64,000 bases of DNA, taken from assembly GCA_043769985.1 (NCBI GenBank), contig JAYVIV010000136.1, positions 5,802 through 69,801 of the forward strand. The letters are read 5' to 3'. The translations under genes and the position numbers were made by a program. This document shows, piece by piece, positions 9,916 to 60,806 of this stretch (positions are counted from its first letter, which is position 1; every line of letters begins with the position of its first letter). Below the pieces are notes generated by a model, which was not told where the DNA came from, did not search any database, and saw only the letters and a program-made list of their open reading frames with translations. Source of the stretch: Arcicella sp. GTDB taxonomy: Bacteria > Bacteroidota > Bacteroidia > Cytophagales > Spirosomataceae.

Positions 9916-10050
9916 AGGTTTTTGTAATTAATTTTCAATATTCAATGTTCAATTAGAAATGTTCAAGTCTTTCAGTGTAATCACTTGAACATTCGTCATT
10001 GAAATTTGAACACGGAACGCCGCCCGATTGAAAATTAAACCTTTTTTAAC

Positions 10051-10695
10051 ATGAAAACAGCCATCATTATTGGTGCTACTGGCTTGGTCGGAAGCACACT
10101 TGTAACGCAAATTTGCGAGAATCCCAACTATTCAAAAGTGGTTTTATTATTACGTAAACCCTTGAATATCAGTCACTCAAAATTAATTCAAGAAGTTATT
10201 GATTTTGATAATATAGATGCTTTAAAGGTTGTGGCAGATGATTTATTTTGTGCGATGGGAACAACTTTGGCGAAGGCTGGTTCAAAAGAAGCACAGTATA
10301 AAATTGATTGCACTTATCCTTTCGAAATTGGAAAAATTGCCAAAGCAAATGGCGTAAAGCAATTCATTTTAGTTTCGTCAGTTGGGGCAGACTTTGACTC
10401 TTCCAATTTTTATTTACGAACAAAAGGAGATTTGGAAAAAAAGATACAATCACTTGGTTTTCAGAATTTTGTGAGCGTTCGTCCATCTATGCTTTTGGGA
10501 GATAGAGAAGAGTCTCGTTTGGGTGAAAAAATTGGAAAAGTATTTTCAAATCTTCTTTCGCCTTTGCTGTTTGGAAGCCTTCGGAAATATCATGGAATTG
10601 AAGCCTCTGACGTTGCCAAATCTATGCAACGATTTGCTAATCAAGGACTTAGCGGCGTGAAATACGTAGAATATGATGAGATAATGGGTACTTGA
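10051..10695 (+). CDS. NAD(P)-binding Rossmann protein (TIP30/YraR-like)
   Basis: IIGATGLVG, CAMGTTLAKAGS, SSVGAD, YLRTKG, RPSMLLG. Confidence 0.78.
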   Translation: MKTAIIIGATGLVGSTLVTQICENPNYSKVVLLLRKPLNISHSKLIQEVIDFDNIDALKVVADDLFCAMGTTLAKAGSKEAQYKIDCTYPFEIGKIAKANGVKQFILVSSVGADFDSSNFYLRTKGDLEKKIQSLGFQNFVSVRPSMLLGDREESRLGEKIGKVFSNLLSPLLFGSLRKYHGIEASDVAKSMQRFANQGLSGVKYVEYDEIMGT

Positions 10696-10762
10696 TAATC
10701 AATAAGCAAGCAAAACTTGTTTATCAATATGAATGTTATTACTTTTGAAAAAACAATATACA

Positions 10763-10936
10763 ATGGACAAAGTAAATAGATATTATGAATTAGAAACTAA
10801 ACCCGTTATTGGTGCAGCGGGTGGTGCTTCTCTCGGCGGGATATTTGGAGGAACAGGAATTATTGTAGGTGGACTTTTAGGTTTTTTCACTGTTCTGGGA
10901 ATAGTGTTGTATCTCTTTTTTTACAAGAAAAACTAA
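10763..10936 (+). CDS. Small glycine-rich membrane protein, hypothetical
   Basis: GAAGGASLGGIFGGTGIIVGGLLG glycine-zipper-like stretch followed by one TM helix. Confidence 0.4.
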   Translation: MDKVNRYYELETKPVIGAAGGASLGGIFGGTGIIVGGLLGFFTVLGIVLYLFFYKKN

Positions 10937-10941
10937 TTTTC

Positions 10942-11250
10942 ATGTCCTACACACAAATTTCTTATTTGTTGGGTTTTATTATCGTTTCCATTTATATAAT
11001 TTTATCGTATTGGAAAAAATCAATTCCTCAACTGCCTGATGCCATTATTCTTTTGCTTGCCACAACTTCTATTCCACCCTGTGTTCGAGTAATTTATATT
11101 TTCTTTAATTATGATGGAAATTCAATCAAAGAAATTGGCAATAACGAACAATTTTATATCATTGTTGGAGCTTTCTCCGTTATTTGGCTTTCAATTAATG
11201 AAATTTATCGAAAATTTAAAGAAAAAATATCTCCTCAAAATATCATTTAA
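10942..11250 (+). CDS. Hypothetical small membrane protein
   Basis: 102-aa AT-rich ORF with about three hydrophobic segments. Confidence 0.45.
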   Translation: MSYTQISYLLGFIIVSIYIILSYWKKSIPQLPDAIILLLATTSIPPCVRVIYIFFNYDGNSIKEIGNNEQFYIIVGAFSVIWLSINEIYRKFKEKISPQNII

Positions 11251-11314
11251 CAAAATTAAAAGACCTATCAAATGACCAAAATCTGATGGGTCTTTTTAGT
11301 ATACTTTTTAAAAT

Positions 11315-13159
11315 ATGACCCCAATCGAAACCTTTCAATCCAGAAAAGAAAATTTCCAAACCCTTACTGATCAATTCCAAAAACAGTATAATCAATGGGC
11401 AATCTTTAGAGCAATTTTGTTTTTAATAATTGCCTTGATTAGTTATTTAACTTATCAGTATTCAAGCGGTGATTATGTAATTCCAGTTGTAATTATTGGT
11501 ATTTCAATATTTCTATTTTCAGTAAATAAACACTTGAAAATCAAATATTTACGTGATAAAAATAAAATTTTATCTATGATTAATGAAGATGAAATTAAGC
11601 GTTTGGATAATGTTTTTACCAGAGCAGAAACAGGCGAACAATTTGCTGAAACGAATCATTTTTATGCTTCTGATTTAGATATTTTCGGGAAACAATCGCT
11701 CTTCAAACTGCTCAATCGCACGCATACTTATACGGGAGGGGCTACTTTGGCAAATTGGTTGAAATTTCCCTCTCAGAAAGCTGAAATTCTCAGTCGGCAA
11801 GAATCTATTGAAGAATTATCCGCTAAAATTGATTTCAGACAAGATTTAGAAGCCTCCGCCATGTTGATTGAAGAAGTTGCTGAACCTACGCAAAAACTAA
11901 TTTCTTGGAGTGAAGAGCCTGAAAATGAGACGATTAAAAAGCCAATTTTTCAATACGGGAAGTTCCTGCCATACCTCACCGTTTCCTTGATTTTGGCTTG
12001 GGCTTTTGGGTATATTCCTATCGGTTATCCACTGTTAATGTTGATTTTTCATGGGTTTATTCTGAAACAGATTTATGATACCGTTAGCCATGCCCTCGAA
12101 CAAACCATTCGCCTTTCTGCCACTTTGAAAGCATACGCTAATCTATCGGAACTAATTGTTAATGAGACATTTACGCATCAAAAACTTAGAGATTTACAAA
12201 CCGAACTTTCAGAGGCAAGTCCTGCGATTAGAGGTTTAGAAGACATTTTGAATAAGTTAGGAAACCGAGCCAACCCGATTTTTGCTTTAATTGCAGGTGT
12301 GCCTTTGTTGTGGGATATTCAATTTTTTATCAAATTAGAAACCTGGAAAAAAAAGCATCAAAAAAATCTTCCTAAATGGTTATGTGCCATTGCTGAATTT
12401 GAAACCTTAAACAGTTTTGCGGGACTAAAATTCGCCAATCCAGAATTTGTAAAACCTGAGATTTCAGAAGATTCTATTTTACTAAAAACCAAAGGATTAG
12501 CCCATCCAATGATTCGTAGAACGAAACGAATTGCTAATAACATCCAGCTCGTTGGCGAAGGGAAAACTATCATAATTACAGGCTCAAATATGTCGGGCAA
12601 AAGTACCTTTCAGCGGACGGTTGCGGTGAATATTGTGTTGGCTTTGGCGGGTTCAGTCGTGTGTGCAGAGGCGTTTGCGTGTTCATGTATGCAAGTGTTT
12701 ACGAGTATGCGTACGCAAGATTCTTTGGAGGAAGATACATCGTCATTTTATGCAGAATTGAAGCGATTAAAGACGTTGATTTTGGCGGTTAATAGTGGGC
12801 AATCTATGGAAACCCCACCCAAGTCGAATGCGACCCCAGCCGCCCTCAAAGGGAGGGCTTTTCTACCCATTTTTTACTTTTTAGATGAGATTTTGAAGGG
12901 GACAAATTCCAAAGACCGTCATGAAGGGGCGAAGGCTTTGATGTTACAATTACACCGAACAACGGCATCTGGTTTTATCTCAACGCATGATGTAGAATTG
13001 GGTGATGAGTTTGCTCATCAAGGCTTTGTGGAGAATTATAGCTTCTCTTCGGAGGTTGTGAATGATGATTTAGTGTTTGATTATAAACTACGTTCGGGCG
13101 TTTGCCATAGTTTTAATGCGAGTATGCTGATGAAAGGGATTGGGATTGAGATGGGGTAA
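11315..13159 (+). CDS. MutS-family ATPase (domain V with N-terminal TM helices; not the mismatch-repair MutS1)
   Basis: ITGSNMSGKSTF, SMRTQDSL, SSFYAEL, LDEILKGTNS, STHD. Confidence 0.85.
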   Translation: MTPIETFQSRKENFQTLTDQFQKQYNQWAIFRAILFLIIALISYLTYQYSSGDYVIPVVIIGISIFLFSVNKHLKIKYLRDKNKILSMINEDEIKRLDNVFTRAETGEQFAETNHFYASDLDIFGKQSLFKLLNRTHTYTGGATLANWLKFPSQKAEILSRQESIEELSAKIDFRQDLEASAMLIEEVAEPTQKLISWSEEPENETIKKPIFQYGKFLPYLTVSLILAWAFGYIPIGYPLLMLIFHGFILKQIYDTVSHALEQTIRLSATLKAYANLSELIVNETFTHQKLRDLQTELSEASPAIRGLEDILNKLGNRANPIFALIAGVPLLWDIQFFIKLETWKKKHQKNLPKWLCAIAEFETLNSFAGLKFANPEFVKPEISEDSILLKTKGLAHPMIRRTKRIANNIQLVGEGKTIIITGSNMSGKSTFQRTVAVNIVLALAGSVVCAEAFACSCMQVFTSMRTQDSLEEDTSSFYAELKRLKTLILAVNSGQSMETPPKSNATPAALKGRAFLPIFYFLDEILKGTNSKDRHEGAKALMLQLHRTTASGFISTHDVELGDEFAHQGFVENYSFSSEVVNDDLVFDYKLRSGVCHSFNASMLMKGIGIEMG

Positions 13160-13171
13160 AATGGCTGTCAG

Positions 13172-13266
13172 AATCAGTCTGAATTGGGATTCGTCAGATT
13201 AAAGGATTTTTCGTCAAACATTAATCCTTAAAATCCATTAATCCCACGAATCCCAATTCAGACAGG
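13172..13266. repeat. Family A element, copy 2
   Basis: GTCTGAATTGGGATTCGT...ACGAATCCCAATTCAGAC between convergent genes. Confidence 0.85.
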
Positions 13267-13282
13267 GTTACTTAGTAAAGTT

Positions 13283-16200
13283 CTACTCCTTCGTCACCTT
13301 CTTAGCCACAATTCCCTCATTGGTCATAATCTGCAAAACGTAATTCCCTCTGGACAGATTATGAATGTTCAAGGTCATTGCATTTGACTTATCTCCTTGC
13401 TTTTCAAGCACTTGACTACCTGACATGGCATTAAGTTTTACGGATTCAATTCTTAAATTCTTAGGAACAACAATCCTTATTTCATCACTCGTTGGATTAG
13501 GTGAAACCGTTATGCTTGCTTCCAGCGTGGGTTCTGATGAAAGAGGTTTTGTTAAGGCTACATCTTGACGAGCGTCTGATTGGACACTCGCACAACCATC
13601 CATCGTTACTACTTGTACATTAAACTTCAAGCCCGAAACAACTTGAATGACTTGCGAACCTCTTAATGATTCCAAAATTGCATTATCACGATACCAAACA
13701 TTGCCCGTTGCCGAACTTGATGTGTATTCCCAGAAGTCCCCGTTATTATCCGTCTTTTTCACCACTGAAATGGTTGGTTTTAGGGGATTTACGCAAAAAG
13801 AATCAGCTCTGGCTACATTATAAAAACTACTATTCCCATCTTGAAAAGCATTCACTTTCACTCGCCCAGCCGTACCTGTGAGGGTAATACGTCTGTTTGA
13901 AATATTGGCGGGTCCATAAACAATTGATAGCCCAACTGCCAAACTTGAACTTGCCGAAACCGTTACATCAAAAGCGGGGTCACCAACTAATTTATCAGGA
14001 ATTTTGGTCATACTAATCGTCTGATTCTGTTTCGTTGGTAAAGCACGAGTTCCCACCGTGTACCAAACCGCATAGGCAGACTGACCAATCAAATATTTTT
14101 GAGAATTTTTGATACTTTTAATTCTACTTTTCTCCATCGTGATTTGATAGGTATTCAGAATATTTTTTGCGTCTAAATAATTATACAAGAGCAAATCATC
14201 AGTTCTGGAATATTCTGGATAGCCCAACGTATTGTTCTCATAGATATAATCCAATCCATCGGTACGTTCAGTATTTACCCCAATTATATAGTTCAAGTCA
14301 TCCTGTTCTATGAAGAAATCGAAGGCAATTATGTTGGTCGAATTCTTTGAAAAAGATGGGTTTCCAATATTTTCTCCTTCGTCCAAGCTGGTAAATAATT
14401 TATCAATTTGTCCAGTACCATAATCATTTTTAGAGGCATTCCAAACGTTGATAAAACCAACATCCCAAAACTCAGATTCTCCTCCTGTGGCATTCTTTAT
14501 CGTATTGAAAGCATCATAAACAAGGTTTTCACTCTGATGATCCCATTCTATGGCATCAGCATTTTGAACCTGGCCAGTGTTTACGCCTTGTGTATAAGTT
14601 GGATTATAAAGTGTATAAACTCTGCTCGTTCCCGCCGATAAATTAAAGACTGCAATTTGTTTATCCGTTGTGGCAACATTAGTCCCCAATGTTCGTAATG
14701 CCGCTAATTTCTTCCCATCTTTTGATACCGCTGCGTTTCGCCAAACTCCCGAAGAAGACACATTTTCAACCTTTGGCGTTCCTACTAAATTGACTCTTTT
14801 AATGAAACCATCGGCAGGCACAAAATACGCAAAAGTTCCATCATCAGGCACTGTTGGCTTGTGTTCAATCACAATATTCTTTGCTAATTCAACAAAACTG
14901 TTTGCATCTGCTTCCCCTTTCGTACTTGACTTGTAGAGTGTTTTTGTAACTGGGTCATAACTCAACAACCCTTCTGTTCCGATATTCACAGGTACGTCTG
15001 CTTTTGGTGCTGGTGGAATTGGAGTTGTTGGATTAGAAGGGGTTGGCGTAGGTGCATTTCCATCCGTAATTCCAACGGCATCAAAAGCTGCTTTAGCAGC
15101 ATTTATATCCGCATCTGTCACCCCTGCTGAGGCTTTTAAATCTGTGGCAGATTGAATAACGGCACGACGTAAATCCAAGAACTTAGAGGTACGAGTTAAG
15201 TAGAACGCCAAAGCACGATAATAGATTTTTTCAGCCTTCGTTAAGTTCATTCCACTTGCAGTTGCAAAACGATAAAAAGCGTTATTTGGCACGCCAGAGT
15301 TGATATGCACACCATAATTATCTTCCGAGCCTGAATAATATTGGTTCATGTTAGTGGGCTGATAACCATTGTCATTCAGACTTCTACCACCGTTATTTGG
15401 ATTCGACAAATCCCTTAATGCACCCGTTGGATAAAAACGAGCCACCACCACATCTTCTCCTAATTTCCATAAATCATTGCCCGTTTTAGCTTCAACCAAT
15501 GCCCCAAAACAATCTGCTAAGGATTCATTAATTGCCCCTGATTGTCCTTTATATTCCAAATTAGCCGTTTTTTCAATAACACCGTGAGTCATTTCGTGTC
15601 CTGCCACATCCAAACCACCAGCTAAGGGTTTAAAAGCCGTTCCACCGTTTCCGTAGCCCATATATTCTCCATTCCAAAAAGCATTATCAAATCCTTTACC
15701 ATTTTCGTCGGTGATATTGATGATAGAGATAATCGTTCCGTCACTACCATTCAAAGACTTACGACCATGTTTTTTCTCGTAATAATCGTATGCTAATCCT
15801 GCATTGTAATGGGCGGAAATAGCAGTTGCATTATTCCAACTGTTATTGGTTGAAGAGACTTGTTTTATTGTTAAATCTTCACTCACTTTTGAATTGGTCG
15901 CATCAATCGTCCATATAACTCGTTGTGGGTCATCGGCTTTCACCACTTTATTACCCCTGATGAACATTCCTCTCGAAGCATCTATCAAATTATAAGAACT
16001 TCCCGACTGATAAGTATTGATGGTTCTGTTGAATCCATTGAGGTCTCTTGCAGTAGCTGTTGCCACGCCGTCAAGGGTACAAGTGTAGTTATATTTATCT
16101 AAGATTTCGCCCGAATTTGCATCAATAACATATACCCATCTTTCTAAAAAATTTGGACGCACAGTCACGTGATATGCCAAACGCTCGCCATCCGATTTTT

Positions 16201-16927: not shown

Positions 16928-17038
16928 TAGAAATTTATTTTAAACCGCTAAGACACCAAGTCGCTAAGTCAAATAGTGTATCTATCTTAGTGTCTCCGTG
17001 TCTTAGCAGTAATTAGCAATCTTTTTTATTTTTGAATC

Positions 17039-17437: not shown

Positions 17438-17600
17438 AATGGTAAGATGTTGTAACCGCAAAGACGGAAGGACACAAAATAGTGCTTCTTACGTCTTTGT
17501 AGCAAGTTTATTAATAGTAAACGTTTTTTGTGCCTTCCCGTTTTGCAGTAAAATTAATTAATTGTAAATTTTTGCGTCTTCCCGTCCTTGCGGTTAAACA

Positions 17601-19499: not shown

Positions 19500-19529
19500 G
19501 TTGGTAGAATTTGAATGTCCATTAAAATT

Positions 19530-19626
19530 GTCTGAATTTGGATTCGTCAGATTAAGGGATTTGTGGATTTTTCGTCGAATTGTAATCCAAAAAATCCATT
19601 AATCCTACGAATCCAAGTTCAGACAA
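19530..19626. repeat. Family A element, copy 3
   Basis: GTCTGAATTTGGATTCGTCAGATT...ACGAATCCAAGTTCAGAC between xisI and higA. Confidence 0.85.
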
Positions 19627-21897: not shown

Positions 21898-21967
21898 ACA
21901 CGGATTGAACGGATTAGACACGGATTTACAGATTTTTAAATCCGTGTCTAATCCGTTCAATCCGTGT
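21898..21967. repeat. Nonamer-periodic (CACGGATT) inverted element
   Basis: 30-bp perfect IR with a 10-bp spacer. Confidence 0.9.
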
Positions 21968-22109: not shown

Positions 22110-22265
22110 ATGAAAAGAACATTTCAACCATCGGTAAAGAAAAGAAAGAATAAGCACGGTTTCCGTGAGAGAATGTCAACTCCAAACGGTCGTCGTACAT
22201 TAGCGGCTCGTCGTGCAAGAGGAAGACACAAATTGACTGTTTCTGACGAGAAGAGAGGTAAGTAA
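22110..22265 (+). CDS. rpmH: 50S ribosomal protein L34 (absent from the ORF track)
   Basis: Hand translation: [51 protein letters not shown]; directly upstream of rnpA. Confidence 0.97.
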
Positions 22266-22340
22266 TTCAGTGAATAGTTAATAATTAATAGAGAATAGTT
22301 AGTTCAACTATTACTTATTATCTTTTAATTATTAATTAAC

Positions 22341-22805
22341 GTGAAATTTACTTTTAAGAAGTCCGAAAGACTCAATTCCAAAAAAGTTATAGAACAACTC
22401 TTTGATAAAAAGGGTAGAGAAACAAACCAATCGGTTTTTCTCTACCCTTTTCGTGTTTCTTATTTAGGTGTTAGGGGTTTGGATTTAGGGGCGGCAGCCG
22501 TTGCTGTTAGTGAATCAGAGTCCGACACCCTAACCCCTAATCCCCAATACCCAACAGCAACGGCTGCCGTCCCTAATCCCCAAATTCTCATTTCCGTTTC
22601 CAAACGATTCTTCAAACACGCCGTTGATAGAAATCTCATCAAGCGTCGTACCCGTGAGACATACCGCCTGAATAAGCACCTTTTGCTACAAAAACCATCC
22701 TCCCAAATTCCAGCTTACATTGCTTTTGTGTATATTGCAAAGACAATCGAAGATTACGCCAAAATAGAAAAATCCATGAAGGCGATTTTTCAGAAAATGG
22801 TTTAG
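22341..22805 (+). CDS. rnpA: Ribonuclease P protein component with an internal repeat-derived insertion
   Basis: FTFKKSERL, SVSKRFFKHAVDRNLIKRRTRETYRL (RNR motif); follows rpmH; GTG start. Confidence 0.92.
   Translation: MKFTFKKSERLNSKKVIEQLFDKKGRETNQSVFLYPFRVSYLGVRGLDLGAAAVAVSESESDTLTPNPQYPTATAAVPNPQILISVSKRFFKHAVDRNLIKRRTRETYRLNKHLLLQKPSSQIPAYIAFVYIAKTIEDYAKIEKSMKAIFQKMV
22465..22586. repeat. Composite inverted repeat inside rnpA
   Basis: 17-bp perfect IR (22492-22508 / 22553-22569) embedded in TTAGGGG/CCCCTAA heptamers. Confidence 0.85.
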
Positions 22806-26471: not shown

Positions 26472-26628
26472 GGTTGATGGAACGCAGATGACGCAGATGC
26501 CTTCGGCAACGCAGATTTAAGAAGATTTTTTTACTTCGTAAATTGTATTTCAAAAAATAGCAACTAAGAAATTGGTCGCTATTTTTTGTTTAAGGGGTTT
26601 GGGGTTAATTTTGTGAGAATAAGTTTCT

Positions 26629-26730
26629 GTCTGAATTTGGATTCGTCAGATTAGAGGATTTTTTGGATTAAATCATTGAGCAGATAATAATCCAAAAAAT
26701 CCATTAATCTGACGAATCCAAATTCAGATA
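26629..26730. repeat. Family A element, copy 4
   Basis: TCTGAATTTGGATTCGTCAGATTA...TAATCTGACGAATCCAAATTCAGA. Confidence 0.85.
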
Positions 26731-26783
26731 AAAAAACGAACAAACAAAACTCCACACTCAAGACTCAAAATTCCAAACTCAAA

Positions 26784-36086: not shown

Positions 36087-36128
36087 ACAAAAATACTCGC
36101 TCAAAATTTGAGCGAGTATTTTTTGTTT
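36087..36128. terminator. Bidirectional intrinsic terminator
   Basis: AAAAATACTCGCTCAAA-A-TTTGAGCGAGTATTTTTT between convergent esterase and rpmA. Confidence 0.75.
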
Positions 36129-36604: not shown

Positions 36605-36722
36605 TTCTTAGTAAGATTTTTATCAGCTATAAATTTCAAGTAGCAAGTAATAAGTAGTAAGTGATAAGTCTTAAAAACTCATTGCACTAAGTAACTCATA
36701 ACTCATAACTCATAACTTATAA

Positions 36723-37034
36723 CTATAATGTGATTCCTTCGATTAATACTTTTGTAAAATTTTGACGGTGTCCGTTTTGCTTTTGATAGCCTTTACGACG
36801 TTTCTTTTTGAAAACCAGAACCTTCTCTCCACGAACGTGAGCTAAAATTTTACCTGATACTGTTGCACCTGCTACGGTTGGGAGACCTACTTGAATGTCC
36901 CCGTCATTATCGACAAGAAGAACCTTATCGAAAACCAGTGCAGCGCCTTCCTCGCCCGCCAAACGGTGGGTGTAGAGGAAACGGTCTTTCTCAACTTTAA
37001 ATTGCTGACCAGCGATTTCTACGATTGCGTACAT
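36723..37034 (-). CDS. rplU: 50S ribosomal protein L21
   Basis: MYAIVEIAGQQFKVE, KKKRRKGY, GHRQ; start trimmed from 37073. Confidence 0.97.
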   Translation of the reverse strand: MYAIVEIAGQQFKVEKDRFLYTHRLAGEEGAALVFDKVLLVDNDGDIQVGLPTVAGATVSGKILAHVRGEKVLVFKKKRRKGYQKQNGHRQNFTKVLIEGITL

Positions 37035-37078: not shown

Positions 37079-37344
37079 CGGGTTTTGTTTTGAAATCTGA
37101 AAAGAAAGCATTACTTTTATTTAAGAGTTTAAGTATTTTATATATCCATAACGCATTGTTTGATAATGAGTTAGGAGAATAAAGTGAAAATAAAATCGTT
37201 TTGAGGCAGTAAGAAGTTTTTAGTTTGCAATAGGCAGTTAAAAAATATCTCTTATTTGTTTTATTTTATTTACTGCTAACAGAATACTAAATTTTACTGC
37301 CAACTCATTACCAGATTTATTTCTAAATTCTAAAACAAACTCCA

Positions 37345-37860: not shown

Positions 37861-37934
37861 TTGTGATTTAGTGAATTGTGATTGGTGATTAAATTCTCCA
37901 CGCAATTTTTAAATCACAACTCACTAAATCACAA
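37861..37934. repeat. Inverted heptamer array (TTGTGAT / ATCACAA)
   Basis: 23-bp arms, 22/23 complementary. Confidence 0.8.
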
Positions 37935-38631: not shown

Positions 38632-38735
38632 AAAGTTAGACCACGGACAACTCAGATTAAACAGATTTACACGGATTATTTTTAATTTTATCCGTGTAAA
38701 TCTGTTTAATCCCTAAAATCCGTGGTCTATTTTCG
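38632..38735. repeat. GACCACGGA...TCCGTGGTC inverted element, copy 1
   Basis: Inner 22-bp perfect IR; termini identical to the copy at 49617. Confidence 0.85.
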
Positions 38736-42814: not shown

Positions 42815-43037
42815 TGTTTGATAGTGAATAATTAACAGAGAATAGATAATAGTTGATTAACGGAACATTCTTCCGACAAATAACCATTAATTATTCTCTA
42901 TTAATGGTTAATTAAAATCTTTCCTCTAAGTTCGTGATAAATCATACCATTGACAATTAAAACGGTAAGTTTGATGTTGATAAAACGTGGATAAGTTTGT
43001 AACGTTTTGACTTTCAATTTCTTACGAACTAAAAAAC

Positions 43038-43073
43038 AAAACGCTGACTGAATTTGAGTTCAGTCAGCGTTTT
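43038..43073. terminator. Intrinsic terminator hairpin
   Basis: AAAACGCTGACTGAA-TTTGAG-TTCAGTCAGCGTTTT. Confidence 0.65.
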
Positions 43074-43094
43074 GGATATAAATGATTGTTAATT

Positions 43095-43244
43095 CTAAGC
43101 CACTTGACGGCTTCGACGTTTTGCCATTTGTGAAGACTTCAATTGTTGAGCCTCTTTCTTTTTTTCTTCAATATCAAAAATACGATAGGCTTCTTTGATT
43201 CCTTCGTCAATAATGTCTAAAATATCTCTATTTTTCTTTTCCAT
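43095..43244 (-). CDS. Small ORF overlapping the zeta-like gene
   Basis: Hand translation, 49 aa MEKKNRDILDIIDEGIKEAYRIF...; overlaps the upstream stop. Confidence 0.4.
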   Translation of the reverse strand: MEKKNRDILDIIDEGIKEAYRIFDIEEKKKEAQQLKSSQMAKRRSRQVA

Positions 43245-43815
43245 AAGATTGTAGTTTTAACCAAATTTCTTCGTTTTCAATAATAACACTTTTGTCTTCT
43301 TCATTCTTTGCAATCAGTTGTGGATTTCTGAAATTATAGTCAGAATTATCATAAACAGACCAACGATTAACCACAGGAATAAATAAATCTACTAAGTTCC
43401 TTATCCCTCCTTCATAACGTCTTTTCACGTCTTCGTCGGGTATAAAATGTCCTCCTTCCCTCACTCTTTTAGCTACTCTTCTGAGTGCCATATCATAAGA
43501 TTCAAGCCAAAAATACATCAATACAACTTCATAACCAAGAGATTGAGCTTTTTTAGTTAATCCTACATAACTCTTTGTGGCTAAGGTAGTTTCAATAGCA
43601 AAACTGGATTTTTCAGACAATAAAATGTCCACCCTTTCCAACATAATTCTACCCGCTTGAAAGGAAACCGATTCTGGAAAATCGGGATTGAGTTTTGCTG
43701 CAATAATATCAGCATTTACAAATTCTATTCCACCCAAGAATTTGGGTAAAAGAATTTTGGCAGTAGTGGTTTTTCCTGCACCATTACAACCCGCAAGAAT
43801 AAAAAGTTGTGGCAT
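43228..43815 (-). CDS. Zeta toxin-like P-loop kinase (AAA_33/Zeta)
   Basis: ILAGCNGAGKTT, FVNADII, FAIETTL, RVREGGH, YDNS. Confidence 0.85.
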   Translation of the reverse strand: MPQLFILAGCNGAGKTTTAKILLPKFLGGIEFVNADIIAAKLNPDFPESVSFQAGRIMLERVDILLSEKSSFAIETTLATKSYVGLTKKAQSLGYEVVLMYFWLESYDMALRRVAKRVREGGHFIPDEDVKRRYEGGIRNLVDLFIPVVNRWSVYDNSDYNFRNPQLIAKNEEDKSVIIENEEIWLKLQSYGKEK

Positions 43816-44024
43816 TATAGTTGATTTAAAAGGAGAGAATTTTAGCAAATGTAACAAAAACAGTTTTAAACTCCATCCACCAAACTAATTTCGTAAATTT
43901 GCTGTTTAAGCGTTGAGTACGAAGTATTGAGTATTAAGTCCCAAGCCTTCATAACGTGTAAGTTTTCTTAATACTTAGTACATAATACTTAATACAACAA
44001 GTTAATACTTAATACAAAATTCCA

Positions 44025-44615: not shown

Positions 44616-44640
44616 TTGATTTTAAAAGTATTTATTTCAT

Positions 44641-44682
44641 AACAAAAGGGTATCAGAATTTATTTTCTGATACCCTTTTGTT
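44641..44682. terminator. Terminator hairpin after nfu
   Basis: AACAAAAGGGTATCAGAA-loop-TTCTGATACCCTTTTGTT. Confidence 0.7.
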
Positions 44683-44774
44683 ATCATAAATAACTGATTT
44701 CCAGTATAATATTTGAATAATGACAAAACTTTCCCTTGATTCAAAACATTTTAAAACATACATTTGTTAAATAT

Positions 44775-47170: not shown

Positions 47171-49579
47171 ATGTACAAAAATATAATCCTTCCAATTTTA
47201 TTAATAATCCTTCCATTATCAAACATTTACGCACAAAACAACGTCACAATTTCAGGAATTATGAAAGATAAAGTAGCAAAAACGGCTTTGCCTTTTGTGA
47301 ACATTATCCTCAAAACTGAAAAAGATAGTGTCTTTGTAAGTGGCTCAGTAAGCAACGAAGAAGGGCGTTTTTCACTACCCAATATCAAGTCAGGCAATTA
47401 TATTTTAGAAACCTCTTTTGTGGGATATTCTACGAAAAAGCAAGCTCTTTTTGTGGGAAATCTTACGCAATTTTTAGATGTTAATACCATCGAATTAGAA
47501 GAAAATTCTACGACTTTGAATGAAATTATAGTTACTGGAAGACAGGAAGAAATCAGCGAGAAAATGGACAAAAAAACGTTTTCTCTTAAAGATAATATCA
47601 GTCAAAGTGGTGGTTCTGTTTTACAGGCAATGCAAAATCTACCAAGTGTTACAGTCCAAGACGGGAAAGTGCAACTACGTGGTAATGATAAGGTTACGGT
47701 GCTGATTGATGGAAAACAAACGGCTCTTACGGGCTTCGGCAATCAGTCGGGATTAGATAATATTCCTTCCTCTGCGATTGATAAAATTGAAATAATTAAT
47801 AACCCCTCCGCTAAATATGATGCTAACGGAAATGCTGGAATTATCAATATTATTTACAAGAAAAACAAAAAAGAAGGCTTCAATGGTAAGGCAGGTTTCA
47901 CGACAGGTTTTGGCTCGCTTTGGGAACGAAAAAGCAATTTACCTAACATCAGACCCCAATATACTTTTACGCCCAAAATTAACCCCAGTTTATCGCTCAA
48001 TTATCGCAAAAACAAGGTAAATACTTTTTTTCAAGGTGATTATTTATATACTGAAACGCTCAATAAAAATGAATTTGTTACCCGAATTTATGATGATGGC
48101 GATGTGATAAATTCACAATTAAAACGTAACCGAGATACGCATTTCACGACTTTCAAAACGGGCATTGATTGGAATATTGACGAACAAAATACGCTCACCA
48201 TTTCGGGATTATTCGGTAGTGAAAAAATAATTGATAACGGAGACCAACCATTTTTTAATAAAAGTTTATCAGAAAGAAGAAGACTATGGCAGTTTTTGGA
48301 AGATGAATTGAAAACTACCGTCATGGCAACTGCTACCTATCAACATAAATTTAAGGAGGCGGGGCGTTTGTTGAATATTGGATTTAATTACACCTTTCAC
48401 CGAGAAGATGAGAAGTATTTTTACGATAATATTTTGCCAAATTCAGTTGGAACAGATGCTTTCAAATTACTTTCAGACGAACAGGTTTATGATTTGAATG
48501 TGGACTACATAAAACCACTAAAATATGGCAGAATTGAAACGGGTTTGAAGCTCCGCAAAAGAGATATTCCGACCAATATGTTGTTCATTCCTGGCAAAAA
48601 TTCTGTGATAGATGCCAATGCGGGAGGCGAAGCTACTTACAAAGAATTGATACCTGCGGTGTATGGAAATTACGTTTTTGAAAACAAGAAATGGGAGGCA
48701 GAAGTGGGTCTGAGAGTCGAATACGTTGATTTACGGTATGAAGTTAATCCAAATCATCCCACCTATAAAAGTGATGGCTATGATTATACACAACCATTTC
48801 CAAACCTAAGATTTGCTTATAAATTGAATGATAATAACAAAATTTCCCTTTTCTACAATCGCAGAGTAGATAGACCGAATGAGGTGGATATTCGGATTTT
48901 TCCAAAGTATGATGATGCTGAAATTATTAAGGTTGGAAATCCCGCTTTGCGTCCACAGTTCACCAATTCGCTTGAATTAGGCTACAAAACCAATTGGTCG
49001 AAAGGTAGTTTTTATAATGCTTTTTACCACCGTTTTGCCGACGGAACTATCACCAGAATTTCGAGTACAGCACTTGGAAGTAACTTAATTTACGCTACTT
49101 TTCAGAATGTAAATAAGAGTTTCAACACAGGTCTTGAAATGGTTTTGGCTCAGGAAATTTCAAAGGCGTATTCATTCAATGTCAATCTGAATGCTTACAG
49201 AAATCAAATTGATGCTTTTACGGTTTTGAATAAATATCCTGTAAGTCTCTCATTTTCAGCTAATAAACAAGAGATTTTTTCTGGAAATATCAAACTCAAT
49301 AATACCTTTCATTTCTCAAAAAGTATAGATGCTCAATTAACCGCCATTTATTTAGCTCCCGATATTATTCCACAGGGCAAAATCAACACAAGATTTTCGT
49401 TGGATTTAGGTTTGAAAAAAGCCATTCAAAATGGAAAAGGCGAATTGTTTTTTAATGCTACCGATTTATTGAATACGATGATTATCAAACGTGAAATTCA
49501 AGGAGAAGGGTTTCGTTACACCAGCAACGATTATTATGAAACGCAGGTGGTGAGGCTTGGGTATGGGTATAAGTTTTGA
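47171..49579 (+). CDS. TonB-dependent receptor / outer-membrane beta-barrel family 3
   Basis: IDKIEIINNPSAKYDANG, GNPALRP, ends YKF. Confidence 0.88.
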   Translation: MYKNIILPILLIILPLSNIYAQNNVTISGIMKDKVAKTALPFVNIILKTEKDSVFVSGSVSNEEGRFSLPNIKSGNYILETSFVGYSTKKQALFVGNLTQFLDVNTIELEENSTTLNEIIVTGRQEEISEKMDKKTFSLKDNISQSGGSVLQAMQNLPSVTVQDGKVQLRGNDKVTVLIDGKQTALTGFGNQSGLDNIPSSAIDKIEIINNPSAKYDANGNAGIINIIYKKNKKEGFNGKAGFTTGFGSLWERKSNLPNIRPQYTFTPKINPSLSLNYRKNKVNTFFQGDYLYTETLNKNEFVTRIYDDGDVINSQLKRNRDTHFTTFKTGIDWNIDEQNTLTISGLFGSEKIIDNGDQPFFNKSLSERRRLWQFLEDELKTTVMATATYQHKFKEAGRLLNIGFNYTFHREDEKYFYDNILPNSVGTDAFKLLSDEQVYDLNVDYIKPLKYGRIETGLKLRKRDIPTNMLFIPGKNSVIDANAGGEATYKELIPAVYGNYVFENKKWEAEVGLRVEYVDLRYEVNPNHPTYKSDGYDYTQPFPNLRFAYKLNDNNKISLFYNRRVDRPNEVDIRIFPKYDDAEIIKVGNPALRPQFTNSLELGYKTNWSKGSFYNAFYHRFADGTITRISSTALGSNLIYATFQNVNKSFNTGLEMVLAQEISKAYSFNVNLNAYRNQIDAFTVLNKYPVSLSFSANKQEIFSGNIKLNNTFHFSKSIDAQLTAIYLAPDIIPQGKINTRFSLDLGLKKAIQNGKGELFFNATDLLNTMIIKREIQGEGFRYTSNDYYETQVVRLGYGYKF

Positions 49580-49616: not shown

Positions 49617-49718
49617 AAAGTTAGACCACGGATAAAACAGATTTTACTGATTTACACAGATTTTTTACATTTAATCCGTGTAAATCAGTCTAATCCGCAC
49701 AATCCGTGGTCTATTTTC
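49617..49718. repeat. GACCACGGA...TCCGTGGTC inverted element, copy 2
   Basis: AAAGTTAGACCACGGA and AATCCGTGGTCTATTTTC shared with the copy at 38632. Confidence 0.85.
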
Positions 49719-53517: not shown

Positions 53518-53581
53518 TTGGGGTTAAGGGTTAGTAAAATTTTGATTATCAATAAGTTACCGATAAAATATTTTTAGAAAT

Positions 53582-56802: not shown

Positions 56803-56837
56803 GAAGAATTTATTATATTTGATTAAAAATTAGAAAC

Positions 56838-57071
56838 ATGACAAGAATCGTTTTAGATATTCCAAACAATAATGATGTGGAATTTTTACTTCCATTACTT
56901 CGCAGACTTGGGATAATAATCTCTAATGAATACCACGAATTAAGCGAATCAGAGGCTATTTATCATAAAAAAGTTATTGAAAAAGGTGGTAGAAATATAG
57001 AGAATTTTGAAAATTTTATGCAAGATTTTGAGTTAAGTCGTCAGGACAGACCTATGCCATTTAGAGACTGA
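56838..57071 (+). CDS. Putative antitoxin (VapB position)
   Basis: 77 aa, 5 nt upstream of a PIN gene. Confidence 0.6.
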   Translation: MTRIVLDIPNNNDVEFLLPLLRRLGIIISNEYHELSESEAIYHKKVIEKGGRNIENFENFMQDFELSRQDRPMPFRD

Positions 57072-57076
57072 TAAAC

Positions 57077-57448
57077 ATGAAAATTTTTGACAGTAACCTA
57101 ATCATTTATTCTTCTCAGGCAGAGTTTCAATTCTTAAAACCAATCATTAATCAGCCTAACAGTTTCGTATCTGAAATCACAAAATTAGAGGTTTTGGGGT
57201 ATCATCAGATCAATTTGATTGACAAAAACTATTTTGAAAGTCAATTTGCTGTGTTGAAGATAATTCCGATTGATAAAAGTGTGATTGATACCGCTATTGA
57301 TTTACGTCAAAAAAAGAAAATGTCAGTTGGAGACAGCATCATAGCTTCTACTGCTTTGCTTTATGATTATGAACTTTACACAAGGAATACTGGAGATTTT
57401 AGCTGGATTAAGGGTTTGAGAATTGTTAATCCATTTACTGATTTGTGA
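57077..57448 (+). CDS. vapC: PIN domain VapC toxin
   Basis: IFDSNLII, ITKLEVL, DSIIASTAL, LYTRNTGDF. Confidence 0.88.
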   Translation: MKIFDSNLIIYSSQAEFQFLKPIINQPNSFVSEITKLEVLGYHQINLIDKNYFESQFAVLKIIPIDKSVIDTAIDLRQKKKMSVGDSIIASTALLYDYELYTRNTGDFSWIKGLRIVNPFTDL

Positions 57449-57490
57449 ATTGAGTAAACTAATCATCCACACACCAATTTAAAGAATACC

Positions 57491-57892
57491 TTGAATAAAG
57501 ATAAAGTAACCCATAGTATTATGAAAACAGATGTAGAAATTTTAGATAAATTTGGTCAGATAGTCACAAGGGATGTTCATGATGAATTATTTTATTTTAT
57601 TTCAAGTGATTTAGGCGTTTTAGCTCAATCAGAAGGTGTCATGAACCTTTTTGCGAATATGTCTCAAATTCAAAAAAAAGAGTTAGAGAGTTACATTGAT
57701 GGATTACTGACAGACTCTATATTTCAATTTCTGAAAATATTTGATGAAAATAGTCAATTCAAATTAATATTTGAAGATGAAGACGGTAGAGTTAAAGATT
57801 TGAATAAGATTAGTGATATGCTTAAAGCTGAACCACTTATAGAAAATGGATGGATTCAAAGATTCAGTAAGTATAAAAGAGTGAATAAATAA
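57491..57892 (+). CDS. Hypothetical AT-rich protein, possible orphan immunity protein
   Basis: LDKFGQ..., FQFLKIFDEN, GWIQRFSKY; start uncertain (TTG or Met at 57521). Confidence 0.55.
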   Translation: MNKDKVTHSIMKTDVEILDKFGQIVTRDVHDELFYFISSDLGVLAQSEGVMNLFANMSQIQKKELESYIDGLLTDSIFQFLKIFDENSQFKLIFEDEDGRVKDLNKISDMLKAEPLIENGWIQRFSKYKRVNK

Positions 57893-57938
57893 TTTTACCT
57901 ATCCGCACGTTATTTCCCAACAAATCAGACAAATAACC

Positions 57939-58175
57939 ATGCAACAATTCCCATTATTCTCAACGGTTATTTTAACCAAATATTTCCCTCTATATCAGTT
58001 CACGAAGGGAGATGTCGCTACGGTTGTTGAATTCATCGAACCAAGCGAATATATTTTATAAGTATTTGATAACCAATGTGATACACTTGATGTAATTCCC
58101 GTTTTAGCCTCAGATATTACTTTACCAAAACCTCATGCAGTAGTCAATTATCGTGATTATGCGAGTGTTGCGTAA
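57939..58175 (+). pseudogene. DUF4926 protein with internal nonsense codon
   Basis: MQQFPLFSTVILTKYFP...KGDVATVVEF...YIL*VFDNQCDTLDVIPV; TAA at 58059-58061. Confidence 0.7.
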
Positions 58176-58183
58176 TCGTCCCC

Positions 58184-58873
58184 TTACCCCCGCATAACCT
58201 CCTGTAAAATCCCCAACGACTTCACTTCTGTAAGCGTATCCACGTGCAAACAATAAAACAAAATGATTGAATCTAATAACTGATTTCTGGAAAAACGGTC
58301 AATTTTGGGGGCTTTGTCGTATTGCGTATTCATCAACACATCCAATTGATTTTCAAGAACTTGTGTTAAAGTTGGCAAGTTATGAAGACTCAATTCATGT
58401 GAAATTTCGTGGGCATTTTCGGGTGAAAAACCTAAATAGGTTCCAAATTCTAAGAGAAATTGTAAGTGGAAATTTTCGTAGTTTTCAGTAACGCCATCGA
58501 GCCAAAGAATAGAATTATTGAGGAAGTGAAAAAGGGGCGTATTTCCATTTTCTTCTTGTAATGATTTACTTAAAATTTCAGTAATGAATAAAGCAATCGA
58601 AGACTTCTGAATGTTGAAAGGAATGGTTTGAAAAGGAGCATTACATTTCATCTCCGAAATCCGATGAATGTTCTTTCCGTCTTTATGATAAATCACTAAA
58701 TCTAATAACGTAAGTGGCTGAAAAAGAGCGATTTTGTTCTTTGATTTGGCACTTCTGACACCGTTTTCGATATATGTCTGAATCCCAAACTCTTCGGTAT
58801 AAATCTTCACAATCACCGAGGTTTCTCGATAACGAATATAATTAATAACTATGCCACGAGTTTTGAATAACAT
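58184..58873 (-). CDS. recO: DNA repair protein RecO
   Basis: KTRGIVI, YRETSVIVKIYTEEFG, FQPL, KSLGILQEV. Confidence 0.92.
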   Translation of the reverse strand: MLFKTRGIVINYIRYRETSVIVKIYTEEFGIQTYIENGVRSAKSKNKIALFQPLTLLDLVIYHKDGKNIHRISEMKCNAPFQTIPFNIQKSSIALFITEILSKSLQEENGNTPLFHFLNNSILWLDGVTENYENFHLQFLLEFGTYLGFSPENAHEISHELSLHNLPTLTQVLENQLDVLMNTQYDKAPKIDRFSRNQLLDSIILFYCLHVDTLTEVKSLGILQEVMRG

Positions 58874-58877
58874 TTTA

Positions 58878-59018
58878 TTTCGATGTTGGATGTTCGTTTT
58901 CCGATGTTTGGTTTTCGAGTATAATTAACATCAAACGTCAAAAAAACTATCTTCAATTTTTGCAGTTTATTTTCCGAGTAACGAACATCTAACATCGAAA
59001 ACCGAACCGAAGCGTCGG
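58878..59018. repeat. Inverted heptamer array (CGAACAT/AACATCG) between plsC-like and recO
   Basis: CGATGTTGGATGTTCG... arm and the ...CGAACATCTAACATCG arm. Confidence 0.8.
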
Positions 59019-59023
59019 ACGCA

Positions 59024-59827
59024 TCAAATTTCTCTCTTCCAAGTCCATTTTTCTACTGGAATATTTTGTTCGATTTTGTCTCTTAAAATCTCCATAATCT
59101 CTTCCACAGGCATTTCTGGGTCGAAGCGGATTGGTTCTTTGAAATTTACCGTTAATGTGGTATTCGCCTTTTTGAAGCGTAATCCTTTCTTATCAAACGC
59201 CCGCCTAAAACCATTTATTACTACGGGTACAACTATTGGATTATGGGTTTTTATTAAATGTGCCGTTCCTTTACGTAGTGGTGCATAAGGCGTTGTTGTG
59301 CCTTGCGGGAAACTTACCACCCAACCATAAGAAAGTCCTTTTCCCACTTTGTCATCCGCCGAAGAATCAACTGCCCTTTTCACATCTTTACCCTCCGCAC
59401 GCCATGAACGATTCACTAAAATTGCTCCTGCCTGAGAAAAAATCCTTGGAATCAATCCTCCTTCTTTCATTGTTTCGGAAGCTGCCACATAAAAAACCCT
59501 CGAACGTGGAGCCAACAAATAAATTGGAAAATTAACTGAATTCCTAAATCCCCATTTGATACTGAAAAAGATGTGATATAGGGCAATCACATCCATAAAA
59601 TAAGTCTGATGATTAGATAAAAACAACACTCCCGTGCGTGGAAGTCCTTCCAAATGCTCTGTTCCGCTGATTTGCGTTTTGTTAACGCCTCGCAATCGGG
59701 TATAAGTCAACACTCCCAAAATCATCACAATAGCTCTCTTCAAAAGCATCGAATTGCCGAAGGGATCCCGTTCAAAGATTCCAAAGACATCAGCCATGGA
59801 GAGCAATTTTTTTAATACTGAATTCAT
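59024..59827 (-). CDS. Lysophospholipid acyltransferase (PlsC family)
   Basis: SNHQTYFMD (HxxxxD), FPQGT, IVPV. Confidence 0.85.
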   Translation of the reverse strand: MNSVLKKLLSMADVFGIFERDPFGNSMLLKRAIVMILGVLTYTRLRGVNKTQISGTEHLEGLPRTGVLFLSNHQTYFMDVIALYHIFFSIKWGFRNSVNFPIYLLAPRSRVFYVAASETMKEGGLIPRIFSQAGAILVNRSWRAEGKDVKRAVDSSADDKVGKGLSYGWVVSFPQGTTTPYAPLRKGTAHLIKTHNPIVVPVVINGFRRAFDKKGLRFKKANTTLTVNFKEPIRFDPEMPVEEIMEILRDKIEQNIPVEKWTWKREI

Positions 59828-60035
59828 GTTTTACGCAATGAGTGAATGATATAATGAGCGAATGATTGAATATTTTCAGAAGTAAAGTTCCCTGCACTTC
59901 AATTTTCAGTTCAATCGTTTCTCAAAAATACTCACTCATTCTATCATTCTATCATTCTATCATTGTTTTTTCTATCATTCTATCATTGTTTTTTCGTAAT
60001 TTCATTCATTTCTTTCATTACAAAACCGTCTAAAA

Positions 60036-60686
60036 ATGAAAAAAAATACGCTTTTAATCTTATTTTCTTGCCTGATTTTTAAAGGATTAGCTCAAAAAAT
60101 CATTGACCGACCCATCATTTATGACTCTACTCGAAAAGCACTTTCCATTCAATATCTTAAAGAAAGACACGGCTTAGAACAATCTGAGCCTACACTTACA
60201 CCAAAAATGATTGTTTCTCATTGGACGGCAATTCCCACGCTCGAAGGTTCATTCAATGCTTTTAATTCCGTGATGTTGCCTTCGTATCGGAAGGAATTAA
60301 AGGGAGTAAGTCCACTTAATGTTTCGGTTCATTTTTTGGTTGATAGAGACGGAACGATATACCGATTGATGCCCGAAAATCTTATGGCTCGTCACGTCAT
60401 TGGACTCAATTGGTGTGCTTTGGGTATTGAAAACGTAGGAGATGGCAATAAATTTCCCTTAACCAAAGCCCAATTGAAAGCGAATATTTGGCTCGTGAAA
60501 TATCTGAAAAAGAAATATACTAACATTGAATATTTGATTGGACATCATGAATATACTTCATTTCAAAATACACTACTGTGGAAAGAATCTAACCCAAATT
60601 ACAGAACCGAAAAAGACGACCCTGGCATAGATTTTATGAATAAATTGAGAAAAGGAGTTAAGAAATTAAACTTGCAGGGTATTTAG
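60036..60686 (+). CDS. N-acetylmuramoyl-L-alanine amidase (Amidase_2)
   Basis: IVSHWT, VSVHFLVDRDG, ARH, GIEN, IGHHE, DDPG. Confidence 0.85.
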   Translation: MKKNTLLILFSCLIFKGLAQKIIDRPIIYDSTRKALSIQYLKERHGLEQSEPTLTPKMIVSHWTAIPTLEGSFNAFNSVMLPSYRKELKGVSPLNVSVHFLVDRDGTIYRLMPENLMARHVIGLNWCALGIENVGDGNKFPLTKAQLKANIWLVKYLKKKYTNIEYLIGHHEYTSFQNTLLWKESNPNYRTEKDDPGIDFMNKLRKGVKKLNLQGI

Positions 60687-60806
60687 GGGTTTAAGGATTA
60701 TAGGGTTTAGGAATCATCCTTATATTTTTCCTGTACTCCAAAAACAATTAATCAATCCCCTTTTCCTAAAACACATAATCCCTAAACCCCAAAACACCCA
60801 AAAAAT

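Follow-up and report, generated by a model that had tools for sequence, protein, structure and literature searches.

A 64,000-nt stretch of DNA from a freshwater Arcicella sp. (GCA_043769985.1, contig JAYVIV010000136.1, positions 5,802-69,801, forward strand; hereafter the window) contains many spacers in which a tandem array of short units is followed, across a loop, by an inverted array. These periodic inverted-arm spacers probably belong, as copies without a gene, to two parallel families of small foldback cassettes. In its full form, the first family would carry a four-helix-bundle gene (PF05635/TIGR02436, the '23S rRNA intervening-sequence protein', Avd-like) between arms of tandem 7-mers, sometimes 8-mers, and the second would carry a gene of the GxxExxY PD-(D/E)xK nuclease fold (PF13366) between GC-richer arms with boxes phased every 8-11 nt. 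Our analysis demonstrates that a polar, periodic foldback architecture is common to full cassettes and to hundreds of gene-less copies, that the elements form two cargo-specific classes which are gained, lost and replaced at fixed gene boundaries, and that every subfamily of cargo proteins is accompanied by an arm motif of its own. Below, G000 denotes the genome under study (5.16 Mb, 302 contigs, about 36% G+C, assembly completeness 94%), C-numbers denote its contigs (the window is C136:5802-69801) and G001 onward denote related genomes. The closest relatives of G000 belong to Arcicella (Spirosomataceae, Cytophagales) and include metagenome-assembled genomes as well as cultured strains, among them A. 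aquatica LMG 21963 and A. rosea DSM 21163.

Periodic inverted-arm hairpins across the genome

The original prediction held that many spacers of the window share an architecture of tandem arm, spacer and inverted arm, and 15 of the 17 loci that it named are indeed periodic inverted-arm hairpins (Table 1). Most of the named loci folded at between -17 and -56 kcal/mol, and an independent inverted-repeat scan recovered elements with 20-46 matched pairs at 9941-10010, 16944-17010, 17453-17596, 21898-21967, 37861-37934, 38637-38729, 43896-44003, 49622-49713, 58878-59000, 59836-59965 and 60677-60799. An exception was 26478-26530, which consists of direct repeats alone, with no inverted partner and no reverse-complement ACGCAGAT copy nearby. 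At 36640-36725 the periodic arrays are present but ordinary inverted pairing is not, as the locus can pair only as minus-strand (sense) RNA, by way of G-U, folding at -23.5 kcal/mol compared with -7.4 on the plus strand. The proposed division into two types was retained in modified form: most loci assigned to the 7-mer type have that period, but 59835-60015 and 720-782 have period 8, and the '9-mer' type is a separate class whose true period is 8 or 9-11.

A genome-wide scan for periodicity and inverted repeats, which had been suggested as a check, revealed the pattern far above chance. Inverted repeats of at least 20 bp occurred in 32% of 2,941 spacers (4.5% in shuffles), and those of at least 30 bp occurred in 17.5% (0.4% in shuffles). 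Autocorrelation of the arms at lag 7 was 0.358 compared with 0.304 in shuffled arms, with peaks at lags 7 and 14 and then 8, and no excess at lag 9 was found in the genome-wide arms. Period 7 accounted for 107 strict tandem tracts and no other period for more than 11, and loose period-7 arrays numbered 851, compared with 131 in local shuffles, 698 of the 851 being intergenic. Gene-less hairpins in G000 amount to about 200 of period 7 and about 145 of period 8-11, with five cargo genes per class. They typically fill the whole spacer (median distances to the neighbouring open reading frames (ORFs), 7 and 11 nt) and most have short loops (median 8 nt); occasional elements lie inside genes, in frame. 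Long inverted repeats were found in 23.6% of convergent, 17.3% of tandem and 12% of divergent spacers, classes that are only approximate because the gene calls (non-overlapping ORFs of at least 70 amino acids) are crude and miss small genes such as rpmH, whose placement at 22111-22266 turned a seemingly divergent spacer into an operon spacer. Genome-wide repeat counts are lower bounds, as repeats probably break the assembly. Some of the perfect direct heptamer arrays of 10-17 units lie at contig ends (C253:1-94, C15:18021-18140, C169:12393-12486).

The arms differ between loci, as the original prediction had stated, but only in part, since genome-wide they can be grouped into roughly a dozen motif families that are related to one another, including AGGTATG, GGTTATT, GATGTTC, GGGGTTA, AAGTATT, TGAGCTT, TTGTGAT and CAGTTAT. 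The C-rich strand of most families is TAACNNN-like and includes the TAACTGA repeat described by MacGregor (PMC4679880). The proposed mechanism, which conserves geometry but not primary sequence, needs correction on the second point: the primary sequence is constrained, with relatedness among the motifs, strict polarity and divergence in step with the cargo protein.

Where two heptamer arrays lay within 150 nt of each other, the G-rich array came first in 91 cases and the C-rich array in 1, and this order holds on either strand because it is unchanged by reverse complementation. The G-first order was found in 43 versus 1 cases in convergent spacers and in 99 versus 5 in tandem spacers; for one motif family searched in 151 Cytophagales genomes, it occurred 32 times in 12 genomes and the reverse occurred 3 times. 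The reversed control pattern (CAATRRHCAAT...ATTGDYYATTG) matched 19 times in G039 and 7 times in G161, both Cytophagales, which points to another palindromic heptamer family in these two genomes. An effect of the G-first order is that the arm facing the next start codon is always the G-poor one. Solo arrays upstream of start codons likewise present the C-type in sense orientation (90 versus 20), a bias that reproduces in G000 the rule given by MacGregor for TAACTGA (PMC4679880). In hairpin-free spacers, the 30 nt before starts have a composition of A 0.415, C 0.165, G 0.096 and T 0.324; such G-depleted, A-rich leaders fit the Shine-Dalgarno-poor translation initiation of Bacteroidota, and the G-poor facing arm matches these natural leaders (9.6% G). 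Leader-by-leader selection is ruled out as the sole cause of the polarity, because convergent spacers are equally strict. The polarity is intrinsic to the element and is not selected site by site.

Arms around four-helix-bundle and GxxExxY genes

The suggestion that the hairpins are empty versions of cassettes for four-helix-bundle and GxxExxY genes is supported by the flanks of such genes, by arm matches, by period classes and by orthologous spacers. A scan for distant inverted arrays revealed a 119-amino-acid ORF between AGGTATG arms at C69, which encodes a TIGR02436/PF05635 four-helix-bundle protein. Distant inverted arrays were rejected as general cargo enclosures, as only 1 of 16 pairs (C69) was a true cassette; at C22, ruvA lies between two hairpins. 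The G000 genome carries five PF05635 and five PF13366 genes, and all ten have periodic inverted arms around them, in the form of one gene-spanning pair or of a complete hairpin on each side. Against 1,610 other small genes, the inverted-repeat scores of their flanks were far higher (p = 2e-5); the only genes in that set to score equally high were RAYT-like transposases with their own, different palindromes.

The arms of these genes recur throughout the genome. The flanks of the C103 GxxExxY gene matched about 135 places, five of them in the window, and those of the C49 GxxExxY gene matched 67-93 places, including window 21898-21967, and 59 catalogued hairpins (period peak 9-11). Two arm families of C284 GxxExxY genes have 10-18 dispersed copies, the first including window 17453-17596, and four of the four-helix-bundle arm families have 7-19, including window 43911-44015; these three window hairpins directly match cargo arms. 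Among gene-less hairpins, 51 matched four-helix-bundle flanks, 41 of them with period 7 (lag-7 peak 0.59-0.68), one four-helix-bundle arm family having period 8. A further 145 matched GxxExxY flanks, only 1 with period 7 and with peaks at 8 or 9-11, and none matched both cargo classes. The period classes do not overlap, and therefore the '7-mer' type answers to the four-helix-bundle class and the '9-mer' type to the GxxExxY class.

The association extends across the genus. PF05635 genes were present in all 21 Arcicella genomes, with 1-13 in each and several having internal stop codons, and gene-spanning heptamer arms were found at 19 of 25 four-helix-bundle loci from Arcicella genomes other than G000. 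Motifs at these loci include GATGTTC, TGAGCTT and GTGATTG (the last similar to TTGTGAT), which are gene-less in G000: arms with the motif of window 58878-59018 flank four-helix-bundle genes in G007, G008, G011 and G016, and GTGATTG arms, similar to those of 37861-37934, do so in G006, G017 and G018. Cultured carriers of four-helix-bundle genes in this family include A. aquatica LMG 21963, A. rosea DSM 21163 and Arcicella sp. LKC2W; the arms inspected there were of the heptamer type. Mapping of arm motifs onto the four-helix-bundle protein tree required 12 label changes (minimum, 10; shuffled mean, 19.3; 0 of 200 shuffles as low), and proteins were 83% identical in same-motif pairs and 43% identical in different-motif pairs. 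This co-divergence of protein and arm motif fits a protein that reads its own arms.

Comparison across relatives, for which the flanking genes of nine G000 cargo loci served as probes in ten related genomes, showed the same spacer as a full cassette, as a gene-less hairpin of the same motif or as a plain spacer. Up to three states were found per orthologous spacer: the shortest was plain, about 40-60 nt longer than the joined flanks; the intermediate one measured 90-140 nt; and the long one had an insert of 520-720 nt in which the four-helix-bundle gene was either intact or a pseudogene. At the C33 locus, a full AGCGAAT-armed cassette in G000 corresponds to a gene-less AGCGATT hairpin in G014 and a GGTTATT-type hairpin in G002, and the C69 locus holds a gene-less TGAGCTA hairpin in G001. 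Between leuC and leuD, G000 has a GxxExxY gene where G005 has a four-helix-bundle pseudogene. Across Arcicella, elements are gained, lost or exchanged as wholes, and one spacer may contain a cassette, a pseudogenised cassette, a same-motif hairpin, an other-motif hairpin or nothing; change between species is all-or-none (97% identical or unrelated). In the window, 43911-44015 and 49617-49718 are absent from G003 (an unrelated short spacer of 36 nt versus 118 between flanking matches, and 14 versus 155 nt, respectively), and 59835-60015 is absent from G001 and G005 (an unrelated spacer of 62-64 nt versus 168 in G000). The refuting outcomes named in the original prediction, arrays conserved unchanged or never flanking cargo genes, did not occur, as hairpin presence varies and cargo genes are flanked.

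Some G000 four-helix-bundle spacers hold, in other Arcicella species, toxin-antitoxin pairs that are YefM/YoeB-like or RelE/ParE-like, with one decayed copy (Table 1). No periodic arms were found around the toxin-antitoxin pairs in these spacers.

Alternative explanations and related systems

These observations allow us to propose how the cassettes might work. By analogy with RAYT and REP (PMC3733652) and with Ssn and NTS (PMC11893778), the small protein would read the phased boxes of its own arms. Gene-less hairpins would be left by loss of cargo between the arms or by independent copying of the arms, and the arrays would then alter their unit number through slippage. In transcripts, stems of 25-45 bp may be RNase III substrates, like the intervening sequence of Coxiella 23S rRNA, whose 28-bp stem the enzyme cuts (PMC4990558), and such cleavage would uncouple neighbouring cistrons.

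Several results weigh against this proposal. Tight co-variation of the arms within each hairpin was rejected, since a hairpin's own arm ranked first as partner in only 109 of 203 cases and had just a slight pairing advantage over the best arm from another hairpin of its family; with so small an advantage, complementarity stems mostly from common family membership. No heptamer hairpin has a copy of at least 90% identity elsewhere in the genome, and therefore the 7-mer class bears no sign of recent copying; nearest copies of GxxExxY-type window elements are 85-91% identical, and non-periodic families in G000 reach 95-99%. For most heptamer families, among them GGTTATT, GATGTTC, GGGGTTA and TGAGCTT, the assembly has no cognate four-helix-bundle gene. 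The window hairpins contain no ORF, and arms enclose an S23p/PF05635 one only in five full cassettes elsewhere in the genome; with only five such matches and so short a median loop, deletion of cargo is one candidate direction of derivation, insertion into a hairpin being the other. The three empty/filled comparisons (43911-44015, 49617-49718 and 59835-60015) revealed no target-site duplication, although the species compared are about 80-90% identical and short duplications could have been erased, and at these sites the hairpin replaces the spacer and is not added to it. Co-divergence of protein and motif could be plain vertical co-inheritance. Conservation of some hairpins above that of synonymous sites suggests a host function: 37861-37934 is 97.3% identical in G001 and G005, compared with 85-91% for the flanking coding sequence and 69-77% at third codon positions, and unrelated sequence takes its place in G002 and G014. 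Last, toxin-antitoxin pairs without arms in the same spacers indicate that these may be merely permissive landing sites for small selfish modules.

Some of these points would be expected if the hairpins were primary and the genes were lodgers, that is, if arrays arose by replication slippage and palindromes by intrastrand template switching, and small selfish genes (four-helix-bundle, GxxExxY and toxin-antitoxin) later used hairpins or spacers as safe landing sites. Active slippage is evident from long perfect direct arrays, among them (ATCAGTT)17 and (AGGTATG)13, and the lack of near-identical heptamer copies, the many motif families without a cognate gene in G000, the armless YefM/YoeB-type or RelE-type pairs in the same spacers of other species and the occupation of the leuC-leuD spacer by different cargo classes all agree with such an origin. 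We nevertheless consider it unlikely, because the G-first polarity (91 versus 1) and the common TAACNNN core would not be expected from random local palindromes, the arm periods and families of the two cargo classes do not overlap, the arm motif tracks the protein tree, and turnover is all-or-none, with no gradual drift. Decidedly less probable is that the hairpins are host regulatory elements under selection, serving as RNase III processing or mRNA-stabilising stems or as binding arrays for host proteins, with a cassette link that is historical only. The conservation of 37861-37934 across three species would favour such a role, as would the periodic hairpin (AATAGTT or TTTGAAA type) in the rpmH-rnpA spacer of all 14 Arcicella genomes compared, the sense-strand-only pairing of 36640-36725 through G-U and the fact that the arm facing start codons is G-poor, as natural leaders are. 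However, the hairpins display no overall sense-strand folding advantage, and selection at the RNA level was rejected, with G-U and A-C mismatches on the sense strand numbering 753 and 769. The same spacers are bare or otherwise filled in close relatives, copies also lie within coding sequences, and convergent spacers, although they have no start codon, obey the polarity to the same degree.

The hairpins are not intrinsic terminators, and to read them as ordinary Rho-independent terminators of unusual length is highly improbable. Long inverted repeats are commonest in convergent spacers, and the spacer before fpg, which has four different fillings in five species, holds canonical terminators (short GC hairpins with a T-run) in G001 and G002 where G000 has a long hairpin and G005 and G014 have GGTTATT heptamer hairpins. 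Yet the 10 nt after the 3' arm contain on average 2.98 T against a background of 3.2, at least six T follow in only 6.9%, sense-strand folding has no advantage (49 versus 60, p = 0.43), stems reach 25-45 bp, and hairpins occur in divergent spacers and within the rpmH-rnpA and rplU-rpmA operons; normal T-run terminators are present in the window as well (for example, 36089-36123 and 43037-43074). Mobilisation as REP/REPIN elements by RAYT (Y1) transposases is hardly credible. G000 does contain several Y1 transposase-like genes and the doublet-hairpin layout is REPIN-like, but the RAYT-like genes at C253, C128, C84 and C171 lie between their own different palindromes, for example GGTGCAGAGCACC, and no Y1 gene is flanked by heptamer or 8-11-mer arms, which flank PF05635 and PF13366 genes instead; the periodic hairpins therefore share the genome with a classical REP/RAYT layer. 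One IS200/IS605 TnpA-TnpB pair lies at C78:53811-55516. Telomerase-like or reverse-transcriptase synthesis of the arms found no support: the sole reverse-transcriptase gene in G000 heads a four-gene, defence-like cluster (C105:43556-48308) that has no link to the hairpins.

The two-family foldback reading can be set against described systems, of which the ORF-bearing 23S rRNA intervening sequence is the closest. In Coxiella burnetii it has a 28-bp stem that is cleaved by RNase III, an S23p ORF and tandem GACAGAT heptamers (PMC4990558). As in Coxiella and Leptospira, the four-helix-bundle S23p/PF05635 ORF lies within a long stem of terminal inverted repeats, tandem heptamers in the 5' arm vary in copy number between strains, and the ORF is often decaying, the element being regarded as selfish (PMC4990558); window hairpins form such stems with their 20-46 matched pairs. 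Intervening sequences sit in helix 25 or 45 of 23S rRNA, whereas the Arcicella elements lie between or inside protein-coding genes, are mostly gene-less, number hundreds per genome and include a second class with GxxExxY cargo.

REP/REPIN-RAYT systems (PMC3733652) likewise pair a single small gene with a cognate family of palindromic repeats that flank it and are otherwise dispersed, with gene-less copies far outnumbering the gene, hairpin doublets and paralogues having different repeat families, but the Arcicella arms are made of phased short units and flank PF05635 and PF13366 genes, not Y1 transposases. In Ssn GIY-YIG single-strand nucleases with NTS repeats (PMC11893778), too, a small nuclease gene is framed by a dispersed repeat. 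All five PF13366 genes are so framed, with 10-135 dispersed copies for four of the five. The Ssn/NTS logic of a nuclease recognising its framing repeat likely applies by analogy to the GxxExxY class, although the fold is PD-(D/E)xK rather than GIY-YIG and the Arcicella arms are inverted arrays of phased boxes. The elements would work like REP/RAYT or Ssn/NTS, yet the defining gene of each system is absent from them.

Heptamer repeats are known as cyanobacterial short tandemly repeated repetitive (STRR) sequences and as TAACTGA in Beggiatoaceae, Cyanobacteria and a few Bacteroidetes, and the published arrays are described as direct, one inverted case aside, and as linked to no gene family (PMC4679880). 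They resemble the Arcicella arrays in period 7, mainly intergenic location and related motifs, and TAACTGA arrays occur in G000, but in Arcicella the arrays mostly form the paired arms of polar hairpins that are associated with PF05635 cassettes. The inverted repeats with target-site duplication of miniature inverted-repeat transposable elements do not describe the present elements, as three comparisons show spacer replacement without duplication. Eukaryotic foldback (FB) transposons also have long inverted arms of short tandem subrepeats, variable arm length and mostly gene-less copies, but they are much larger and have target duplications and different proteins. Of the papers naming these protein families that a full-text literature search found, none links them to dispersed periodic hairpins.

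A broader and tentative idea, which we think has a rather low chance of being correct, is that STRR, Beggiatoaceae TAACTGA, Bacteroidota heptamers and 23S rRNA intervening sequences form one unrecognised class of polar foldback elements. Its autonomous form would encode an Avd-like four-helix-bundle protein, with GxxExxY nucleases as a sister class and a subfamily-specific phased 7-mer code; the G-first order would be built into copying or tolerance, and the hundreds of gene-less copies would ride along non-autonomously and alter operon transcripts by way of RNase III. If true, this would provide a common handle on the function of the large PF05635 and GxxExxY families, the origin of heptamer repeats and rRNA intervening sequences. 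The elements would account for many assembly breaks, for spacer turnover between species and for in-frame inserts in essential genes such as rnpA. G000 is a rich system in this respect, with hundreds of gene-less hairpins versus five cargo genes per class and a strict polarity.

Loci of the window and neighbouring features

Table 1 Elements and related features, with window positions unless a contig is given; fold energies in kcal/mol
Position	Strand	Feature	Setting and measurements	Matches and relatives
720-782		Short relative of the period-8 family	TRF period 8/16; folds -13 to -17	
3108-3221		Gene-less hairpin, family flanking the C103 GxxExxY gene	41-50 pairs	BLAST match from both C103 flanks
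13177-13263, 19528-19626, 26624-26734, 62959-63088		Further C103-family hairpins	41-50 pairs each	
9934-10012		Heptamer hairpin (TTCAATR / TGTTCAA)	19 nt after glycosyltransferase gene, 39 nt before next gene; fold -21.6; arm 33 nt, 26 pairs; lag-7 identity 0.45	Sister copies at C35:53909, C68:29604
16942-17012		Period 8-9 GC-richer hairpin (AACCGCTAAGAC...)	Fold -28.4; lag-8 identity 0.52	Motif resembles C284:1578 GxxExxY arms, but no match in the flank search there
17453-17596		Hairpin of the 16942-17012 type	90-nt loop; fold -42.6	BLAST match from left flank of GxxExxY gene at C284:1578
21898-21967		Near-perfect hairpin, three phased ACGGATT boxes per arm	Fold -56.1	Family of C49 GxxExxY arms; matched by both C49 flanks
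22267-22340		Heptamer hairpin (AATAGTT)	Exactly fills rpmH-rnpA spacer; fold -17.3	
26478-26530	+	Three direct ACGCAGAT copies	Not an inverted element	
36640-36725	-	G-type array (AAGTARY), then (TAACTCA)5	rplU-rpmA spacer; TRF score 60	76-81% identical in G001, G005; replaced in G002, G014
37205-37305		Heptamer-type hairpin (GGCAGTA)	Divergent rplU/thioredoxin spacer; fold -26.4	2 of 5 species: G000 and G001 (diverged sequence); absent from G005, G002, G014
37861-37934		Heptamer hairpin (TTGTGAT)	Begins at stop codon of first thioredoxin-like gene; fold -29.5	
38632-38735		Long hairpin, TAGACCACGGA... family	Convergent spacer before fpg; fold -50.9	Nearest copy 87% identical
42820-42910		Heptamer-type hairpin (AATAGAT / AATAATT)	Adjoins mutL start; fold -22.0 plus strand, -30.1 minus	Inside continuous 88% match to G005; G003 match ends at hairpin edge
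43911-44015		Heptamer hairpin (GTATTAA)	Lag-7 identity 0.54	Family of C172 four-helix-bundle cassette arms; BLAST match from both C172 flanks
49617-49718		Second TAGACCACGGA... family copy	Fold -47.0	Nearest copy 90%
58878-59018		Heptamer hairpin (GATGTTC / AACATCG)	81-nt loop; fold -43.2; lag-7 identity 0.71	G003 matches stop and resume within a few bases of both ends
59835-60015		Period-8 hairpin (AATGAGTG / AATGATAG)	Divergent spacer; lag-8 identity 0.53; 46 pairs	
60685-60800		Heptamer/octamer hairpin (GGGGTTTA)	49-nt loop; fold -28.5; 31 pairs	Different 93-nt sequence in G003
C253:70154-70636; C128:2309-2842; C84:26143-26781; C171:1812-2327		RAYT-like Y1 genes	Between non-heptamer palindromes	
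G012:C19:112026-112634; G015:C254:6192-6783; G015:C184:1566-2139; G016:C7:24692-25264		Toxin-antitoxin-filled spacers		

RnpA of all Arcicella has a variable in-frame insert at one site (window 22465-22586). It is a GGGGTTA-type heptamer hairpin in G000, G015 and G016, a GGATTT-type heptamer hairpin in G004, an AAGTTGA-type hairpin in G001, G005 and G003 and an AAGTCGT-type hairpin in G008 and G012, and G006, G009, G010, G013 and G018 have non-repetitive sequence there. A tiny GC-rich element, GCGGAACGCCGCCCG, lies in or beside heptamer arms at window ~10012-10030, in the C69 right arm and in the left arm of the G001 rpmH-rnpA hairpin, and looks as if it inserts into such arms. Other differences among the relatives concern whole genes: G001 lacks the second of two tandem large genes (window 47171-49579), G005 lacks a zeta-toxin-like/AAA gene (window 43228-43857), and G003 has a 1.67-kb insert after the nfuA-like gene (window ~44620-44735).

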